Virus record (IMG/VR): IMGVR_UViG_3300045988_137301
Direction: 5' to 3' (one strand)
DNA length: 64,000 nucleotides
Source: a virus
The position numbers and the translations under genes are program-made. This document shows, piece by piece, positions 20,203 to 62,896 of the stretch. Below the pieces are notes generated by a model. It did not search any database. It saw only the letters and a list, made by a program, of their open reading frames with translations, and was not told where the DNA came from. The stretch's first letter is position 1. Each line of letters starts with the position of its first letter.

Positions 20203-20267
20203 TATTATATATTTTTACCTAACCGAGGTGTTGCCCTACTAGGATTCGAACCCAGACTAAATGATTT

Positions 20268-21267
20268 CATTTTACACCGTTTTGCGGATTAGACTATCAC
20301 ATCCAGTCCTAAGACCAGTCCCTCTGTTTAGTCGTTCACGCTGCACGTAAATACTGCTTGCGCCTTGTCACTTGTTTGCTTCCAAGTCAATTAAGAGGGA
20401 TTCTACTTAAAGGTTATTTATTATTCTTTAAGCATCCAATAATTTGAAATAATAATTATTCCACAATTTATCAATGTTTCTTAATAGAGTATTTCTACAG
20501 GTTTTTAGTAATTTAGTTTTAACTAAATTATTATTCATTAAATATTCACAGCATTCAGAAATAGAACCAAACCTATTTAATTCTTCCATATTAGAATCAT
20601 ACTGTATAATATATTTCTGATTAGACTTTCCAAGTCCTGCATCTGAAATAATTTGTTTTATAACTGAATGTTTTACATTTAATACTTCTGCGACCTTTTT
20701 CTGATTTTTTAATTCTAGATATTTTCCTATAACTAAATCTTTTAACTCTTCTGTAATATCATATTTAGATTCAGTTATTTTTTGATTTCTAGAACCATAA
20801 GTATCAGTCTGACTGTGGCAATTAGGACATAGAAACCTTAAATTCTCTAACCTATTATCATTGTTTTCACCATTAATGTGATCAAGTTCTAATGATAATG
20901 TTCTTCCATTCCACTCTGTTATTCCACATATAGCACACTTGTAAGGAATTAAATTATCCTGTATAATTGTTCTCCTTAATATATTTCTATTATGTTTAGA
21001 ACCTTTACAAAACAATTTATCTTTATCTATTTTTTTAAGTTCATTACTAGTTGCTATTGCAGACTTTCCTCTAAAATTCTTTCCTGATAAATTAAGATCT
21101 GTCATTCTTTGTTTAACTTGCGAATATCCCCATGAATTTCCTTTCGTAGTATAACCAAGTTTAAATAAAACTTCTGAGGTGTTAAGACTTGACTTAACTA
21201 AGTCTATAAATTCCTCGTCTGTAAGTTTATAAATTTTATTTTCCATAATTATTAATTCAAATTCTTA
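20268..21267 (-). mobile_element. Group-I-like self-splicing intron (~1.0 kb) carrying an HNH homing endonuclease ORF
   Basis: Interrupts the tRNA anticodon loop. The 3' region contains a P7/R-S-like stretch gaacgactaaac...gatagtctaatccgc. The ORF fills most of the intron. Confidence 0.45.
20428..21246 (-). CDS. HNH homing endonuclease (intron-encoded)
   Basis: Listed ORF. CAICGITEWNG...ELDHINGENNDNRLENLRFLCPNCH is an HNH motif. Confidence 0.65.
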   Translation of the reverse strand: MENKIYKLTDEEFIDLVKSSLNTSEVLFKLGYTTKGNSWGYSQVKQRMTDLNLSGKNFRGKSAIATSNELKKIDKDKLFCKGSKHNRNILRRTIIQDNLIPYKCAICGITEWNGRTLSLELDHINGENNDNRLENLRFLCPNCHSQTDTYGSRNQKITESKYDITEELKDLVIGKYLELKNQKKVAEVLNVKHSVIKQIISDAGLGKSNQKYIIQYDSNMEELNRFGSISECCEYLMNNNLVKTKLLKTCRNTLLRNIDKLWNNYYFKLLDA

Positions 21268-21957
21268 AGAGTCATCTGTGCTCACCATTACACCATAGGG
21301 CAATATTTATTTCTCCTCTTTTAGTTTCTGTAACTCATTTTGGAGTCTCTCATTATCCTGTAATAAAGCCTTTATGTTAGCATCAAGATTTGCCAAAATC
21401 ATTCTTATTTGAACTATTTGCTCAAGCATATTTAGATAGGGCTTTTATTTTATTCTTTGCTACTGTTGATAAGGCTTTCTTGAATTTAATTATTCCGGCT
21501 CTTACTGAATCTATATTATCGCTATATATACATTCCTGGATTCTTTTTAGTTCGTCGTTTCCCAGAAATTCACAAACTGATACAAATAAATCATCATCTA
21601 GCTCTTCTATTTCTCTTTGAAAAGCTCTAGCTTCATTATCTTTATAAGAAATTTCTATTCTTAAAGAATTTTCATCTGAATTTGATTTTAAAGTAAAACC
21701 ATCGTTACTATATTCATAGTATCTATTTTCATTAATAGCTTTTACTAGTTCATTAAACTAGTTCTCGTCAAAAAATGTTTCTAAATTTGTTTTCATAAGC
21801 TTCTTTTGTTTTAGTTATATACAACTATATGGCCATGATTGTTAAATACAAAGTTAAAAAATTCTAATTGAAAATTCTTAAATTTTAATTATTTAGTCGG
21901 AAACAGGTACAGGTACTTTATATAAATATCCCCCTGGGGTTTTAATAAATCCGGAAT

Positions 21958-23511: not shown

Positions 23512-24804
23512 GAAAGGGGAGAAATCCCTTTTCTTTTAAATACAAATAATCTTTGTAGAAATGAACATAAGAAAAAAGTTTAAAACTATAAAGTGTTTGT
23601 ACAACTGGGGAACAATCTACAACCCAGAGACTGATGAAAAGTTAAACTTTAAGACTAAGCGAGTTTATTGTATAGCTTCTTGGGCTTGGGTCATGACCTA
23701 TCAAAAGTCAGAAAAGGATATTCCGGAAATAATCAGGATTGTCTTTGTAGATTAACTCTAAGGTACTATGAGTTATAAATAAAGTGCCCATATGAACCCC
23801 ATCATTGGAACATTGGTTAACGGGGGAAAACAACATCACAACAAATCAAAGTTTTCTGTTTAGTTTTAGGATTATATCTGGCAGCTTGGAAAGACAAGCA
23901 AATTGTGTTACTAATAGATTTAATGCTCATCTAGGGATTTTGGAGGAGAAAGGAAAGAAATTGTCCACTAAAAAGACCCTCAATTTCCGGACTTTTTCAA
24001 ATTCTCAAAAAACCTGCCAGAGTAGGAGTTATATAGCTCATACTCTCTATGAAAATTATCTAGTGTTTAGTCTGTAAAAAGACACCAAAAAGAAGGGTTA
24101 CGCAGAAAAGCCCAACACCAAAAATAACTGCTACAAATCTCATGTGCATATTCGCAAACTTAAGCACTATAGGATTTAGGTTGAGCTGTAAGGATTGGTC
24201 ACTTATAGCAATATTATGAGTACTGCTGATATGTCAGTGACCGCACATATTACATATAAAATATGTTATACGATTATGTTAGAAGTTGCCAGGTCTAAGA
24301 AGCCTGATTAAAATCTCTAGATAGTAAGAGAGAACCTCATAAGGGTTCATTTTCCATCTCGAACCTATTCGCAAGTTTATAGACTAGCTATCTATAAATT
24401 TAGTGAACGTTGATAACGTCCTCAGCATGGAAAACTGAGAAATAATCTCCTATCTTATTCTAGATATAGATAGGATTTCCCTACTGGTATAATGGATTAC
24501 ATCTCCCTTTAAAGGAGAAGATTCTGGCTCAAGTCCAGAGTAGGGAACTATTTAGTTGGATGTAGTCATATTATTATAATTATTATTGGATCATAATGGG
24601 TATGCCCTGAGACTATGTAGTTGTTGTGAAACAACTCAAAGTATTGTGGCACAGGAAGGCCTAACTTCTTTTCACTATTTATAGACTAAAAGGCACAGCG
24701 GTGCCTTTACTCTCAAGATAAGAACAACCTTTACGTGGTTTGAGAGATAAGTAAGCTATTTTAGCTGAAACTAATAGTTCTAGTAACAATTAAAAATATT
24801 CATC

Positions 24805-33721: not shown

Positions 33722-34363
33722 TTGATAATTATGATGACAAGAAATGTAACACTTACCCTTGAAAAGGCTAGGGAGTGGTTTAACAGCGGCAACGCAGAAC
33801 TTAAGGAAATTGCGCTTCAAGCATTTACAGAAAAGGAATTAGCTACTCCTAATTTTAAAATCATTAAGACCTTTGAAGATGCTATGAATGCTCTTCAGTT
33901 TGAGAACACCTCGAAATCATTTGTATGGAATCATATTAAACAAGTCGCTAGAATTTCTATTGCATCTGCGGCTATTATAAAGTTAAATATCATTCGAAGA
34001 GCTCTTAACCTTGGAGAAAATATGGAATTTACAAAGGGAAATATCTATTATCCTTATAATCCATTTATAACTAAGTCCAGCACTTATTATGATAATGAGA
34101 TCAAGGAAGGATTAATGTCTGTGGTGGCTGAATTCGAATACAAAGACCAACGGTATCGCCTGATGGGCGGCGTCGCTGGTGGTGGGTCCGCTTCCGGGCT
34201 TGGCTGTTTCGGTTCTTACGGTGGGGTCAGCTTTGCCGATTCCGCTGTCGGCTTCCTTGGTTGTGCCACTAGAGAGATTGCACAGCATTTTGGTAAATAC
34301 TTTGCCAAAGAGATCTTTGATGCTAAATATGGTGACACTGTGAAGTATCAGTGGATAAGATAA
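33722..34363 (+). CDS. Paralog of 28532..29446 carrying the Gly-zipper-like C-terminal module
   Basis: Listed ORF. ...LMGGVAGGGSASGLGCFGSYGGVSFADSAVGFLGCATREIAQHFGKYF... Confidence 0.55.
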   Translation: MIIMMTRNVTLTLEKAREWFNSGNAELKEIALQAFTEKELATPNFKIIKTFEDAMNALQFENTSKSFVWNHIKQVARISIASAAIIKLNIIRRALNLGENMEFTKGNIYYPYNPFITKSSTYYDNEIKEGLMSVVAEFEYKDQRYRLMGGVAGGGSASGLGCFGSYGGVSFADSAVGFLGCATREIAQHFGKYFAKEIFDAKYGDTVKYQWIR

Positions 34364-34483
34364 TTCCTACTTAGAATGTACTATAGTACACTGCAAATCT
34401 TCTATCTTATAAAAAGGTCTTGGATTTGCATTTTTGTAGGGCCTATAGCTCAGTTGGTTAGAGCAACTAATTATGAGTCAGAT

Positions 34484-34560
34484 AGGGACGTATCCCCTCA
34501 AGCTTATACCTTGTAGAAAGGGTAGTCGGTCGCACGTGGGTTCAAACCCCACCGTCCCTA
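34484..34560 (+). ncRNA. tRNA-like element (7-bp closing stem plus canonical T arm) nested inside the insertion
   Basis: agggacg...gtggg-ttcaaac-cccac-cgtccct. No standard D or anticodon arms. Confidence 0.3.
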
Positions 34561-34585
34561 CAACTTCTGGATTGAATTTTTAATT

Positions 34586-35182
34586 TTGCACCAAAACATT
34601 TGGTATTATGATTATTTTCATATATATTTGTATATGAATTACAATGATTATAATACACAGAAGTTAAGAGGTTTAAAGCGCAAATTAGAGCTGGTAAAAT
34701 CTCGTGGTGGTAAATGTGAACTATGTGGCTATGATAGAAACATAGCTGTTCTAGAATTTCACCATATCAATCCAGATGAGAAAGAGTTTCAGTTAGATAT
34801 GAGACATTTATCTAATACAAGTCTAGAAAGGCTTAAAGAGGAAGCAGATAAATGTCAACTTCTATGCGCTAATTGTCATAGAGAAGTACATAATCCTCAC
34901 TTGGGAATGGACGAAGTTGAAGATTTAGTTAATACTGAAGCCAAAGATAAGACGTCTTTTGAAAACATGACTGGGTCTGTATGTCCAGTATGCGGCAAAA
35001 GATTTCCTAAATCGAAGGGTAAGATATACTGTTCTAAGGAATGTAGAGATGCTGATAAACATTATCCCTCCCTAGAAGAAGTAAATGAGCAGTATGAAAT
35101 ACTTAAGAATTGGGAGAGAGTTGCACAGCATTTTGGATTAACTCGCAGAGTTATTCAAGGAATAAGAAAGAAAGACTCATAA
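34586..35182 (+). CDS. HNH homing endonuclease (inside the split tRNA)
   Basis: Listed ORF. CELCGYDRNIAVLEFHHINPDEKEF...LLCANCH is a His-Me finger motif. The real start may be an internal Met. Confidence 0.6.
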   Translation: MHQNIWYYDYFHIYLYMNYNDYNTQKLRGLKRKLELVKSRGGKCELCGYDRNIAVLEFHHINPDEKEFQLDMRHLSNTSLERLKEEADKCQLLCANCHREVHNPHLGMDEVEDLVNTEAKDKTSFENMTGSVCPVCGKRFPKSKGKIYCSKECRDADKHYPSLEEVNEQYEILKNWERVAQHFGLTRRVIQGIRKKDS

Positions 35183-35313
35183 TGTCAAGGTCGTCGGTTC
35201 AAGCCCGGCTAGGCCCACATCAGAGAATACAGATTGATATGTCTTGAGTAACATATGATCTGTGGGAGCGGTACTCCAGTAACTAGAGAGTTTTTCATTA
35301 AAAATAAAGATTT

Positions 35314-35724
35314 ATGAATTATCAGTATTTTGGATTGTTCCTAGATGAACCAACTAGAAACAAACTTATGCAAGTTATCATTGGAAATCCCATCATTTCT
35401 AATCTGGTGTTCCAAAGAGGAAGTACTATTTATTTAGACCATTGCACTCTCCTCCATAAGAATCAACATGAAGAAAAGATGGCTAATAGCCTACAATATC
35501 GTATAGATGATAGTTTTCGATTAATTGTAAGTAAGATAGGGATTTCTGAGAAAGCAATAGCTTTTGGAGTAGAATTGGGAAACCAACATCTACCCTGTGC
35601 AAATGCCAAACCTCATATTACTATCTGTACAATCAATGGAGGTAAACCAGTGAATAGTAATGAGATTTGTAATTGGATTCCTATTCCAGAATTTAGCATT
35701 TATGGCACTCTTAAAAAAATATAA
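35314..35724 (+). CDS. 2H phosphoesterase superfamily protein (LigT/cyclic phosphodiesterase-like)
   Basis: Listed ORF with two H-x-T-x motifs, DHCTLLH and KPHITICT. Confidence 0.5.
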   Translation: MNYQYFGLFLDEPTRNKLMQVIIGNPIISNLVFQRGSTIYLDHCTLLHKNQHEEKMANSLQYRIDDSFRLIVSKIGISEKAIAFGVELGNQHLPCANAKPHITICTINGGKPVNSNEICNWIPIPEFSIYGTLKKI

Positions 35725-35758
35725 ATTTTTATGATTTGAATGCTATTTAACTAAACGT

Positions 35759-35849
35759 GGGACAGTGGCGAAACTGGTTGAAACGCACTAGATTTAGGAT
35801 CTAGCACAGATTAACGATCACATTGTGGGTTCGAATCCCACCTGTCCTA
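35759..35849 (+). tRNA. tRNA-Leu(TAG), type II
   Basis: Anticodon ctaga-tttagga-tctag; long variable arm; T arm gtggg-ttcgaat-cccac; acceptor gggacag/ctgtcct. Confidence 0.7.
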
Positions 35850-36043
35850 CAAAACTTAATTTAACTATATGAAAATTGGAGATATTGTTTATTTAACTGA
35901 ACCAGTCAGATGGAGAAAAACTCCTGACGGAGATTGGAATGAATATGAATACCCTGTTGGAACACCTCTTAGGGTTATTGGAGATTCTGGGTATAGGGGA
36001 TTAGACTTAGAATTTATTGAAACAGGCGTAAAAATGCTAGAGT

Positions 36044-41290: not shown

Positions 41291-41394
41291 AGTGCCATCA
41301 TCTAATGGTTAGGACATACGCCTTTCTAGCGTAGAATCACAGTTCGAATCTGTGCTTGAGTACTTAGCTACGGGTTCGAATCCCGTTGGCACTA
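41291..41394 (+). tRNA. Composite tRNA-Glu(TTC)-like locus with a duplicated T-arm/acceptor segment (~104 nt)
   Basis: 5' acceptor agtgcca; D arm atc-taatggttag-gac; anticodon tacgc-ctttcta-gcgta; first T arm cacag-ttcgaat-ctgtg followed by a non-pairing cttgagt; second T arm acggg-ttcgaat-cccgt followed by tggcact, which pairs 7/7 with the 5' acceptor. Confidence 0.4.
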
Positions 41395-60975: not shown

Positions 60976-61818
60976 ATGGCCAAAATTATTGGGACTACTC
61001 CCAATAGAATGGCTAGTAAAAGAGGAAAATTAGGATTAAAACCTAACAAAGGAAAAAGAGATACGTATAAACTTACAGAAGAGGAAATAAGCGTTTTATG
61101 TGGAACACTACTTGGTGATTCTACTATAAGATATGTACATAATCAGTGTAAATATCCAAACCTTACATTTTCTCATACAGTCAAGCAAAAGCAATATTTT
61201 ATGTGGAAGACAAATAAGCTAACTAATCTTATGTCTTCCAGCAATATGTATAAGACTAATTATGTTAATACTAATGGAGAAGTAGTTTATAAATTAGTAT
61301 ATACTGGAAGCAATATGGCTTGTCTAGTAGATATTAGAACTATTTTTTACGACGGAAACGGAGTAAAGCATATTCCAATTGATTACTTAATTCAGCACTT
61401 TAATGATGTAAGTTTATATTGTTTATTTATGGATGATGGTAGTTATGATATATCTTCTAATAGTTATATAATTAATACTCAATGTTTTAGTGAAGAAGAA
61501 TTAAAACAATTTGTGGTATTACTATATAATAAATTTAATTTAGAGTTTAGTATTAAAACTGACCATTGCTTATATTTAAAACATGTAAGTAATTCTCTAT
61601 TTCAAAAACTCTTGGAAAGAATAAATGAATGTCCTGATATGATATATAAATTAGGAAAGTCGTCAGAAAACTCCGTTAAACAGGGAAACTCCCAAGAGGA
61701 CAATCCTGTGCTAAACCCTCAAGAAATTGAGGAAGATGCCAAACGACTAGAAGTGATGCCTAACGAGAGAGACGGGGCTATAAAATCTTCCACGAAAGCG
61801 GGGCACTACTCAAAGTAA
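60976..61818 (+). CDS. LAGLIDADG-family homing endonuclease (two motifs)
   Basis: Listed ORF. LCGTLLGDSTI and YCLFMDDGSYD resemble the paired LAGLIDADG motifs. Confidence 0.45.
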   Translation: MAKIIGTTPNRMASKRGKLGLKPNKGKRDTYKLTEEEISVLCGTLLGDSTIRYVHNQCKYPNLTFSHTVKQKQYFMWKTNKLTNLMSSSNMYKTNYVNTNGEVVYKLVYTGSNMACLVDIRTIFYDGNGVKHIPIDYLIQHFNDVSLYCLFMDDGSYDISSNSYIINTQCFSEEELKQFVVLLYNKFNLEFSIKTDHCLYLKHVSNSLFQKLLERINECPDMIYKLGKSSENSVKQGNSQEDNPVLNPQEIEEDAKRLEVMPNERDGAIKSSTKAGHYSK

Positions 61819-62896
61819 TATTCGTGAGAATATAAAACGAGCGAAAGATATAGTCTGAACCATATAGTAATATATGGAAGCATAAGATAAAGAGCTTATG
61901 CGATAACATAATTGTTTCAATATGTACTTTCATATGAATTTGTTGACAGAGCCACTGAAATAGGTTACACCAAATTCAGTGAGCTTGCACAACATGCTAT
62001 GGAGATTCTTAGATATTCGGAGAAGATGAGAGAAGACTGTAAAATGATATTCTTAACACATTCAGAAAATGTGGGAGATATGGTAAATCCAAAGTATGTT
62101 ATAAAAACTGTTGGAAAACTTCTGTCAGAAAAAGTCACTCTAGAAGGATTATTTACATATATCTTCTTCACTAAAGTGAGTGAAGGAGAGAATGGAAGGA
62201 TGCAATATAAGCTTATTACCAACAATGATGGAAGCTGTGTGGCTAAGACCTCTCTGGGAATGTTTGAGGAACTAGAAATAGACAATGATTTAGCAGAGAT
62301 TATTAAAGTTATTGATCTTTATAATGAGGGAGAATGAAATTAGACATACTATTCCACTACGATGTAAATGAAGAAACCGGAGAAATCACCTTTATTGGAA
62401 AAGAGGAAATTTCAGTTGACACTGCTACTAAAAGGGCGGTGAAATCTACTAAGGTGGATGATAACCCTGAACCCATTGTTACACTTGATTCTAATAAACT
62501 AGTACTAACAAAGGGAGCTGTTGACTTATTGCAAATCTGTGAAGATTGCCGAGTTGACATCAAATATAAAAAGAAAGGGAAAACAGCCGTCCCTATAATA
62601 GGGACGGATTCTGCTTTTGGGACAAAAGGTGGAAATAAGCTAACTAAGAGTAATACTATAAGTTATAGAGGGGCTGCTAATAGTAAGCTCTCTGCTTTTG
62701 GTACTAGCTTCAAGTTAGAGCCTACCGAAGACGTAGGAATATATTATCTGATAGGAAATGGAGCAGTTGAGCCAGAACCTATTCCAGAGGAGATTATTGA
62801 TATCGAGAGTGAACTCGATATAGAAAAATTAGATGATTTAAGTATAGACAAAGATGATACAAACTTAGGAAATTTTGATTTTAAACTTTAAGAATT

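Follow-up and report, generated by a model that had tools for sequence, protein, structure and literature searches.

In phage T4, the free-standing homing endonuclease SegB is encoded within a tRNA cluster and is associated with variable co-conversion tracts, as homing produces (PMC2330249). Here we describe a locus in a 64,000-nucleotide (nt) stretch of viral DNA (IMG/VR record IMGVR_UViG_3300045988_137301, hereafter the window) in which a tRNA(CAU) gene (34439-35217, plus strand) is split by an insert carrying an HNH endonuclease open reading frame (ORF). As in the case of SegB, an endonuclease gene occurs among tRNA genes, is polymorphic for presence or absence between phages and is accompanied by apparently co-converted flanking tRNA sequence. 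SegB is, however, a GIY-YIG enzyme with an intergenic gene, whereas here an HNH gene lies inside the tRNA, the anticodon loop of which provides its last codon and stop. The cassette found in the window also differs from SegB in travelling with its own gene of the AUA-decoder type.

Two classes of tRNA intron also resemble this locus. Group I introns of bacterial tRNA anticodon loops and HNH-bearing phage introns share with it a split anticodon arm, a homing endonuclease and a first exon ending in U. Unlike them, the present insert lacks a terminal G and a detectable core, is found in the stem between positions 29 and 30 instead of the loop, and interrupts exons that are not kept functional across the family. 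Archaeal bulge-helix-bulge (BHB) introns and split tRNAs are similar in their non-canonical stem position, in the pairing of the insert with the anticodon region and in their complementary acceptor strands, but the 3-4-3 BHB arrangement is absent here, the host genome is that of a bacterial phage and neither the splicing endonuclease nor the ligase was found among the 30 window ORFs scanned. These comparisons, together with the data presented below, lead us to regard the insert with reasonable confidence as a homing-endonuclease cassette lodged in a phage tRNA(CAU) gene and not as a spliced intron, splicing being apparently absent.

The interrupted tRNA(CAU) gene

All the features by which the preliminary description had recognised two halves of a tRNA(CAU) gene separated by an HNH ORF are present in the sequence. 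The 5' portion (positions 1-29; 34439..34468) reads GGGCCTA TA GCTC AGTTGGTTA GAGC A, followed by ACT. The 3' portion (positions 30-73; 35174..35217), delimited from the sequence and from intact relatives, contains the anticodon loop CTCATAA (35176-35182), the 3' anticodon-stem strand TGTCA (35183-35187), the variable region AGGTC (35188-35192), the T arm (35193-35209), the 3' acceptor strand TAGGCCC (35210-35216) and the discriminator A (35217), all on the plus strand. An automated scan for T arms having a matching acceptor strand upstream paired the two acceptor strands (34439/35216) at 7 of 7 positions. Neither ARAGORN nor the Rfam tRNA model called a tRNA at this locus.

The outer tRNA has the pairs C4:G69 and C5:G68, through which E. 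coli TilS recognises tRNA-Ile2 (PMC11947777). These TilS-type pairs are missing from the other two CAU tRNAs of the window, which have a mismatched 1:72 pair together with G4:C69 and G5:C68 and are not Ile2-like, and no further AUA decoder was seen in the window. The split gene thus looks like a tRNA-Ile2 and is probably the AUA decoder.

Comparison of interrupted and intact alleles places the insertion between T29 and G30 of the anticodon stem, which corresponds to 34468|34469 and 35173|35174 in the window. The cassette thus delimited (34469..35173, plus strand) is 705 nt long, begins with AATTATGAGTCAGAT and terminates with AAGAAAGAAA. It is composed of a 15-nt linker formed by AATTATGAGTCAGAT (34469..34483), a tRNA-like gene (34484..34560), an AT-rich spacer that extends from this unit to the ORF start and is conserved among window-type copies (34561..34633), and most of the HNH ORF (34634..35182).

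Alleles with and without the cassette

The informative relatives were obtained by searching IMG/VR with the exact junction pattern and with exon patterns, the phage contigs or loci fetched and compared with the window being labelled L followed by a number (L008, L246, etc.); a megablast search of the locus against GenBank phages returned only an unrelated 86-base-pair (bp) match. Of the loci fetched, 7 carry the insert and 50 have an intact tRNA, and several interrupted and intact loci are identical in their flanks (e.g. L008 versus L031, L037, L042, L045 and L047). The preliminary description had named an intact tRNA at this site in related genomes among the signs of a simple insertional inactivation, and such genomes are precisely what these 50 loci represent. 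Of its two proposals, a different kind of intervening element is unlikely and an inactivated gene comes close to the truth, the insert being most likely a mobile HNH cassette and the outer tRNA of the window one that could not be rebuilt (see below). When the window is compared with L008, the tRNA and the insert are 95.7% identical, in contrast to only 75-79% for the neighbouring genes; taken with the presence/absence polymorphism, this is what an element that has moved recently would show.

The junction GAGCAACTAATTATGAGTC is also present in seven large phage contigs (105-192 kilobases, kb), in which it sits in a tRNA with another acceptor stem (GGACCTA) and another D loop; the sequence that follows the junction is near-identical between these seven donor-type contigs and the window. 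The intact donor-type allele reads GGACCTATAGCTCAG..GGTCAGAGCA ACTGA CTCATAA TCAGG AGGTC GGGGGTTCAAAGCCCTC TAGGTCC A, and the intact allele of the window's own type (L014-L016) reads ...GAGCA GGACA CTCATAA TGTCA AGGTC GTCGGTTCAAGCCCGGC CAGGCCC A. In the window, positions 27-29 (ACT) and 30-31 (GA) are of the donor ACTGA type, and from position 39 on the outer tRNA is that of the resident TGTCA-type allele. This accounts for the 5' anticodon-stem strand that had been sought without success: it is formed by ACT (34466-34468) and GA (35174-35175), which do not match the 3' strand of the window's own tRNA. Positions 27-31 would then derive from another tRNA and have arrived together with the insert by co-conversion. 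A complementary chimera occurs in L069, in which the upstream flank and 5' exon are of the L014 type, and the 3' exon and downstream flank of the donor type.

After exact excision in silico, the ligated exons of the window would meet as ...GAGCAACT|GACTCATAA... and the anticodon stem would be ACTGA/TGTCA, with 1 of 5 pairs. Submitted to ARAGORN, this product gave only an out-of-register 4-bp stem with a C at position 33 and was called "tRNA-Tyr(ata)". Since donor positions 27-31 are joined to the resident 3' strand, the outer tRNA of the window would not be rebuilt even by exact excision, and it is probably non-functional.

The HNH gene and its family

The HNH ORF encodes a putative homing endonuclease of 182 amino acids (aa; plus strand, likely ATG at 34634, ORF listed as 34586-35182), and its last codon and stop (TCA TAA) coincide with positions 33-38 of the outer-tRNA anticodon loop. 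It matches HNH endonuclease families of PHROGs (7e-26) and the Pfam HNH domain at 20.3 bits, slightly below the cut-off; a search of PDB sequences with the protein gave no significant match. Across 22 relatives, neither the HH...N...CxxCH motif, which includes the catalytic H and N, nor the Cys pairs vary. Homologues with 98-99% identity occur in other phage contigs and relatives number in the hundreds overall. Degenerate HNH peptide patterns used in metagenome and viral scans mostly matched unrelated HNH domains, only L088-L094 and L168 being useful.

Loci compared at 53-99% HNH identity follow a common plan which, from 5' to 3', consists of a 5' piece of tRNA(CAU), a short linker, a gene of the AUA-decoder type, a spacer, the HNH ORF (ending, as in the window, in TCA TAA at anticodon-loop positions 33-38) and a 3' piece of tRNA(CAU). 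The 5' piece is cut variously, from about G24 to position 31, and relatives often lack a usable 5' or 3' half. In L246-L248, which are 80% identical and share the host tRNA of the donors, exon 1 stops at GAG (truncated at G24) and the loop is AATCAATAA. In L089 and L090 the 27-31 strand is absent, and in L076 the stem is mismatched, with GGAC combined with a 3' strand of the TCAGT type. L077 and L078 lack the 5' half, L009 and L013 have lost the 3' half by deletion, and the anticodon loop of L364 has a 1-nt deletion. Both halves are gone in L082, which has an upstream flank in common with L088. Some members of the ORF family are free-standing genes with no tRNA exons around them (L082, L080, L250 and L168).

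The slot that precedes the ORF is filled in several ways. ARAGORN identified a tRNA-Met(cat) in L076, L089 and L091 and a tRNA-Ile(tat) in L077 and L249; reading of the sequence added a tRNA(CAU), uncalled by ARAGORN, in L093 and a tRNA(UAU) near-identical to that of L077 in L078. The 77-nt tRNA-like unit occupies the slot in window-type copies and in L246-L248, L082, L088, L364, L080, L094, L250 and L168. In L092 the slot holds no recognisable gene, and an intact tRNA(CAU) is located directly downstream of the ORF. A CAU, UAU or UAU-like gene adjoins the HNH gene in every cassette examined.

Two of the HNH relatives, in L249 (1201-1740) and L250 (1201-1908), carry an in-frame TAG at an invariant Gln position, and gene callers still gave full-length products for them; these phages appear to read TAG as Gln.

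These data are consistent with the following scheme. The HNH enzyme presumably cuts intact tRNA(CAU) copies in co-infecting phages, and repair from a cassette-bearing genome would copy in the cassette along with a tract of flanking tRNA that varies in length, co-conversion in the window having presumably carried positions 27-31 along with it. The putative AUA-decoding gene located just upstream of the HNH ORF probably covers the loss of the outer tRNA, such a rescue function being suggested by the CAU, UAU or UAU-like gene that stands beside every HNH gene of the set.

A widespread family of tRNA-like RNAs

The 77-nt unit of the window (34484..34560, plus strand) has a 7-bp closing stem, a T arm with TTCAAAC and a loop, CUUAUAC, with an anticodon-like UAU. 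The preliminary description had correctly seen a nested tRNA-like element with a closing stem and a T arm but had undervalued it, the unit being an independent, widespread gene and not part of an intron fold. A search pattern was drawn from ten copies, with columns 11, 12, 14-16, 33-36 and 38-41 fixed and columns 8, 41, 45 and 46 also listed as fixed, and at least 119 IMG/VR stretches matched it. The covariance model built for the family (R1) scores the window unit at 95.6 bits, versus at most 23.5 bits for the canonical tRNAs of the window.

The matches listed comprise 89 distinct sequences, 87 of which combine a 7-bp acceptor stem with a discriminator A and a T arm of a 5-bp stem and a TTCRANY loop. 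Among 86 distinct sequences listed, the anticodon-type loop carries UAU in 76 (CUUAUAC, CUUAUAA or CUUAUAU), GAU in 8 (CUGAUAA or CUGAUAC), CCU in one (UUCCUAA) and UAC in one (UUUACAC), i.e. isoleucine (Ile) anticodons in 84 of 86. All loops are 7 nt long and conform to Y-U-NNN-A-N, with U33 and a purine at 37. The permuted scaffold with a CCU (Arg) loop was found in L147 (minus-strand orientation, at about position 2042) and the one with a UAC (Val) loop in L268, so that the architecture is not strictly bound to isoleucine.

In an alignment of 60 family members, 97.3% of the cells are paired and double changes occur in 17 of 20 pairs; the covariation score was reached by 0 of 500 shuffles, and slid controls were only 33-47% paired. 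The acceptor stem is 97.4% paired, with covariation at all 7 pairs, and RNAalifold independently predicts the same four helices.

These helices do not form a cloverleaf. A D arm between positions 9 and 26 is absent; instead, a 3-bp helix (columns 11-13/37-39) encloses the anticodon arm and is followed by a D-loop-like AAUYGGU..CA. When read as a tRNA of rearranged order, the invariant U of column 8 (fixed by the pattern) and the A of column 9 would be U8 and A9, CCC in columns 11-13 the D-stem strand leading into the anticodon arm (23-25), CU in columns 14-15 the region of position 26, and the 4-bp stem and 7-nt loop of columns 16-30 the anticodon arm. The URGAAA of columns 31-36 would be equivalent to the variable loop, and GGGU in columns 37-40 to the D-stem strand 10-13. 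An invariant A in column 41 would stand for A14 and an invariant GG in columns 45-46 for G18 and G19 (these columns being fixed by the pattern), and the invariant A of column 51 for A21. Columns 42 and 52, which covary as A-U (35) or G-C (18), would form the Levitt pair R15-Y48, the Y of column 52 taking the place of position 48 immediately 5' of the T stem. Support that does not depend on the pattern comes from the four pair types seen at columns 13/37, from the covariation of columns 42/52 and from phage EGole, a member found by BLAST, which has an A-U pair at columns 11/39.

The nested RNA can accordingly be modelled as a tRNA-Ile in which segment 10-21 would have moved behind segment 22-47, with the partners of U8-A14, R15-Y48 and G18-G19, as well as A21, in place. 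In such a permuted topology, the core backbone would be cyclically rotated and the usual three-dimensional contacts kept, in relatives from phages with widely differing hosts. The established tRNA fold brings position 9 close to 23, positions 44-46 close to 10-13 and position 21 close to 48, so that the three new joins are sterically plausible.

Members of the family sit in tRNA arrays. Among 115 occurrences retrieved with the pattern only, 80 have a canonical tRNA within 500 nt, in all cases on the same strand and at a median distance of 83 nt, and ARAGORN calls overlap no more than 4 of these occurrences. Of the 33 loci that have 8 or more other tRNAs, only 2 include a canonical tRNA whose anticodon is that of the family RNA, which occupies the missing-Ile slot in the other 31. 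It often adjoins a tRNA-Arg(CCU or UCU), and AUA, AGG and AGA make up the classic set of rare codons. Two-gene mini-arrays, in which the permuted UAU RNA precedes tRNA-Arg(CCU) or (UCU), were seen in L258 (8005-8255) and L311 (6002-6155). The family is essentially phage-specific, with only 11 matches in 185,579 species genomes, all on contigs of metagenome-assembled genomes. It matches 85 GenBank phages, of which 82 are Streptomyces phages; nearly all the records listed are unannotated at the family RNA, and that of EGole labels it "tRNA-Leu". The location in tRNA arrays, the common strand and the missing-Ile slot all suggest that the permuted RNA may be aminoacylated and decode.

An alternative, which we consider doubtful, is that the unit acts as a processing or decoy element and not as a decoding tRNA, either as an RNase P/RNase Z signal that would free the HNH mRNA from a tRNA-array transcript or as a mimic that would absorb a host tRNA-targeting nuclease or modification enzyme. 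The absence of a canonical D arm, the failure of ARAGORN and of the Rfam tRNA model to call the unit, its position directly upstream of the ORF in many cassettes and the fact that an acceptor/T minihelix suffices for both RNase P and RNase Z would all agree with such a role. However, for 63 of the 89 distinct sequences there is no HNH relative within a distance of 1.5 kb, and the same-strand position in arrays at tRNA-like spacing, with the Ile slot filled in 31 of 33 large arrays, also speaks against such a role. So does the retention of Y32, U33 and A37, of Ile anticodons, of a discriminator that is always A and of tertiary-pair partners that are conserved or covary. Finally, homologous cassettes fill the same slot with a canonical tRNA(CAU) or tRNA(UAU), which again favours a decoding tRNA.

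Several known RNAs share traits with the family. Canonical tRNA-Ile(UAU), such as that of Mycoplasma mobile (PMC3575796), has UAU in the same Y32-U33-NNN-A37 loop, a discriminator A, a 7-bp acceptor stem, a 5-bp T stem and TTCRA, but in the nested unit the core is rotated and runs from U8 and A9 through one D-stem strand, the anticodon arm with its 4-bp stem, a joining segment of 6 nt, the second D-stem strand and the D-loop-like AAUYGGU..CA to Y48 and the T arm. D-armless mitochondrial tRNAs, allo-tRNAs and the permuted genes of Cyanidioschyzon likewise depart from the cloverleaf and keep an acceptor/T branch and an anticodon loop. Allo-tRNAs have 8/4 or 9/3 arms and often UAU (PMC5389517, PMC7609411), whereas the present family keeps the 7/5 geometry with reordered D-loop and D-stem elements. 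The circularly permuted genes of Cyanidioschyzon are processed back to normal tRNAs (PMC3978253); here, in contrast, the mature RNA itself would be internally permuted, with normal 5' and 3' ends. The tRNA-like domain of transfer-messenger RNA (tmRNA) also combines an acceptor stem and a T arm without a normal D arm, and the best Rfam match of the nested unit is indeed tmRNA, at 23.4 bits (gathering score 47), with the middle of the model skipped and the ends aligned. Identity with tmRNA was rejected given the length of 77 nt, the anticodon-type loop, the lack of an mRNA-like tag ORF and of pseudoknots, and a 3:70 pair that is G-C and not G-U.

Two other readings of the unit were discarded. 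A 36-aa ORF (34473-34583) that overlaps it was treated as spurious, and its minimum-energy fold shows a misleading middle hairpin, the true anticodon-type hairpin having emerged only by comparison with relatives. No description of the cassette or of a permuted tRNA-Ile was found in a literature search that covered few subscription-journal papers, in which such absence is no proof.

The 10-bp complementarity and the intron readings

An exact 10-nt complementarity exists between ATTATGAGTC (34470-34479), in the linker, and GACTCATAAT (35174-35183), in the 3' portion of the outer tRNA, which none of 5000 shuffles of the linker equalled. It had been noticed before with coordinates that were off by one, the true positions lying one base to the right. 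ACT and the linker together match the reverse complement of the anticodon arm (TCTGA CTCATAA TCAGA) at 15 of 17 positions, for which reason the helix is best viewed as an inverted duplication; it would be an inherited, inverted copy of the arm that arose at or near the original insertion, restricted to one sub-lineage and decaying elsewhere. The helix is found in only three places, i.e. the window type, L074 and L088; it is at chance level in L246, L364, L076, L089 and L249 and absent across the 80%-identical L246-L248 lineage. The proposal that it juxtaposes the two halves for splicing is thus unsupported across the family. A different linker, TACTTCTAGCTATAGGTTTAT, occurs in L246 (at about 1000-1050), with a 10-nt inverted copy of positions 3-12 of exon 1 (ACCTATAGCT / AGCTATAGGT). 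Inverted duplications at such junctions may be the footprint of repair events.

Some points weigh against a homing cassette that carries a substitute tRNA. The putative target of the enzyme is deduced solely from the insertion site, the permuted-tRNA interpretation follows from sequence logic, and the invariance of the fixed columns is uninformative because the search pattern itself set them. With an HNH relative within 1.5 kb in only 26 of 89 distinct sequences, the tRNA-like RNA is understood as an independent gene that was picked up by the cassette, and its pairing with the HNH gene could be opportunistic. The phage genome beyond the window may also hold another AUA decoder. Exact excision in the donor context restores a normal tRNA(cat) in silico, as called by ARAGORN. 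Lastly, the helix is kept in L074, where it reaches 13 bp when G-U pairs are counted, and in L088, where it has 8 bp with one compensatory G-C to A-U exchange; given this compensatory change and the G-U extensions of L074, a role at the RNA level is possible in that lineage.

The last two points would be expected of an intron, as would a helix that exceeds chance. Overall, a new kind of intron is nevertheless unlikely. In its better form, which we still hold to be quite improbable, a protein-dependent tRNA intron would have its halves held together by the 10-bp helix and the acceptor stem; RNase P and RNase Z would free the nested unit, or another nuclease would cut at 29/30, and a ligase would join the exons with the help of an adjacent 2H phosphoesterase. 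A gene for such a protein (136 aa, two HxT motifs; 35314-35724) is indeed located ca. 100 nt downstream and matches the CPD domain of fungal tRNA ligase at 36 bits (cut-off 23). It is, however, a conserved neighbour of the tRNA(CAU) gene, at 62-254 nt, whether or not a phage has the cassette. Since it also stands beside intact alleles, it is a resident neighbour outside the cassette, with a possible role in RNA repair or anti-defence, and its participation in heal-and-seal splicing as a part of the cassette was ruled out. No RNA ligase or kinase was detected in a Pfam scan limited to 30 window ORFs, in which only the 2H/CPD-like protein turned up. A BHB motif, with 3-nt bulges and a 4-bp helix, was also rejected, both junctions being at opposite ends of an uninterrupted 10-bp helix. 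The product expected of a functional intron is neither restored in the window, where 1 of 5 stem pairs would be regained, nor kept across relatives, many of which, including the L246 lineage with the same host tRNA, are without the helix, without the 5' strand of the stem or without entire halves. Anticodon stems in other registers, with 5' strands elsewhere in the insert or read on the minus strand, were set aside once intact alleles had fixed the junction at 29/30.

A degenerate or very unusual group I intron with an HNH ORF, like the other split tRNA of the window (see below), is scarcely credible: exon 1 ends in U (U29), phage group I introns often bear HNH genes and, on a reading of the sequence, GAGUCAG (34475-34481) could pair with ligated-exon positions 28-34 in the style of a P1/P10 guide, but the insert ends in A and lacks a terminal G, the P1 pairing is limited to 2-3 Watson-Crick bp without a G-U wobble, the 88 nt of AT-rich noncoding sequence outside the ORF and the 77-nt gene leave no room for a core, and the ORF family occurs free-standing. 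The guide reading of GAGUCAG was discarded on the same grounds. As already noted in the preliminary description, no group I core signature is apparent, and the Rfam group I model (RF00028) gave no match on 33900-35900 even at E<=10. The Rfam library does find a group I intron elsewhere in the window (61621-61877, 57 bits), but it also missed the group I-looking insert at 20232-21302, and its negative result is for this reason weak on its own.

Phage setting and other elements of the window

A glucosaminidase-type lysin is encoded in the window, which indicates a bacterial phage, and the closest relatives are Bacteroides crAss-like phages. A NAMPT-like protein encoded in the window shares 64-66% identity with its counterparts in such crAss-like phages and 99% with a human faecal phage fragment; related contigs measure 150-190 kb and have large tRNA arrays. 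On the minus strand, long ORFs are very scarce in positions 1-23000 when the standard code is applied. If TAG is taken as a sense codon, ORFs of 150 aa or more in this 1-23 kb region amount to 5433 residues instead of 1255, and no such rise is obtained with TGA or TAA. The late-gene block seems to use TAG recoding, with no need for it in the plus-strand block (23-64 kb). Large recoded crAss-like phages are rich in mobile elements (PMC7886860, PMC12386605), and the TAG-as-sense gain together with the in-frame TAG of HNH relatives fits such a setting; no mention of the HNH cassette was found in either of these two papers.

The second endonuclease-bearing split tRNA that had been reported in the window does exist (20232-21302, minus strand); it was recovered by the automated T-arm scan described above and reads TGCCCTA...GATGA CTCT|T.., insert, ..aaaatg|AAATCATT...TAGGGCA. 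It carries an ORF for a 272-aa HNH protein (20428-21246, minus strand; PHROG 1e-42), and the 3' noncoding part of the insert has group I-like P7 strings (GACTA...TAGTC), with no Rfam match at the insert. This tRNA sits in the gene block that apparently reads TAG as sense. If group I rules hold, with a 5' exon ending in U and an intron ending in G, the mature loop would be CUCUAAA, i.e. that of a CUA amber suppressor with a Gln-like U1-A72.

Other RNA elements include a RAGATH-14 RNA (24281-24451; 174 bits, gathering score 149), directly followed by a tRNA-Stop with anticodon UUA (24478-24548; ARAGORN). A 104-nt tRNA (41291-41394; Rfam 45 bits, uncalled by ARAGORN) has the anticodon loop CTTTCTA and, in its variable region, a second T-arm-like hairpin (CACAG TTCGAAT CTGTG). 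Finally, the group I intron at 61621-61877 is overlapped by an ORF for a LAGLIDADG endonuclease (60976-61818; Pfam 5e-24) and lies just after a DnaB-like helicase gene.

Significance of the locus

The analysis removes a tempting false lead, that of a new class of bacterial tRNA intron, and puts in its place a well-documented case of a probable homing endonuclease whose gene resides within that of a tRNA and which apparently bears a substitute for the gene it breaks. It also brings out widespread RNA genes with Ile anticodons in phage tRNA arrays, which escape both ARAGORN and the Rfam tRNA model; because these RNAs go uncalled, tRNA counts for many phages, including cultured Streptomyces phages in GenBank, would be incomplete. 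More tentatively, the nested unit and its at least 87 distinct relatives may be functional isoleucine tRNAs of an undescribed topology, and the HNH family a natural "cleave-and-rescue" element that would destroy a TilS-dependent tRNA-Ile2(CAU) and deliver a TilS-independent AUA decoder. If these RNAs do decode, the tRNA fold would tolerate a rewired backbone, which would matter for tRNA evolution, for the true requirements of RNase P, IleRS, EF-Tu and the ribosome, and for efforts to design orthogonal tRNAs. With a UAU anticodon, a decoder would also release the phage from the host lysidine synthetase for AUA, a plausible advantage in AT-rich phages.

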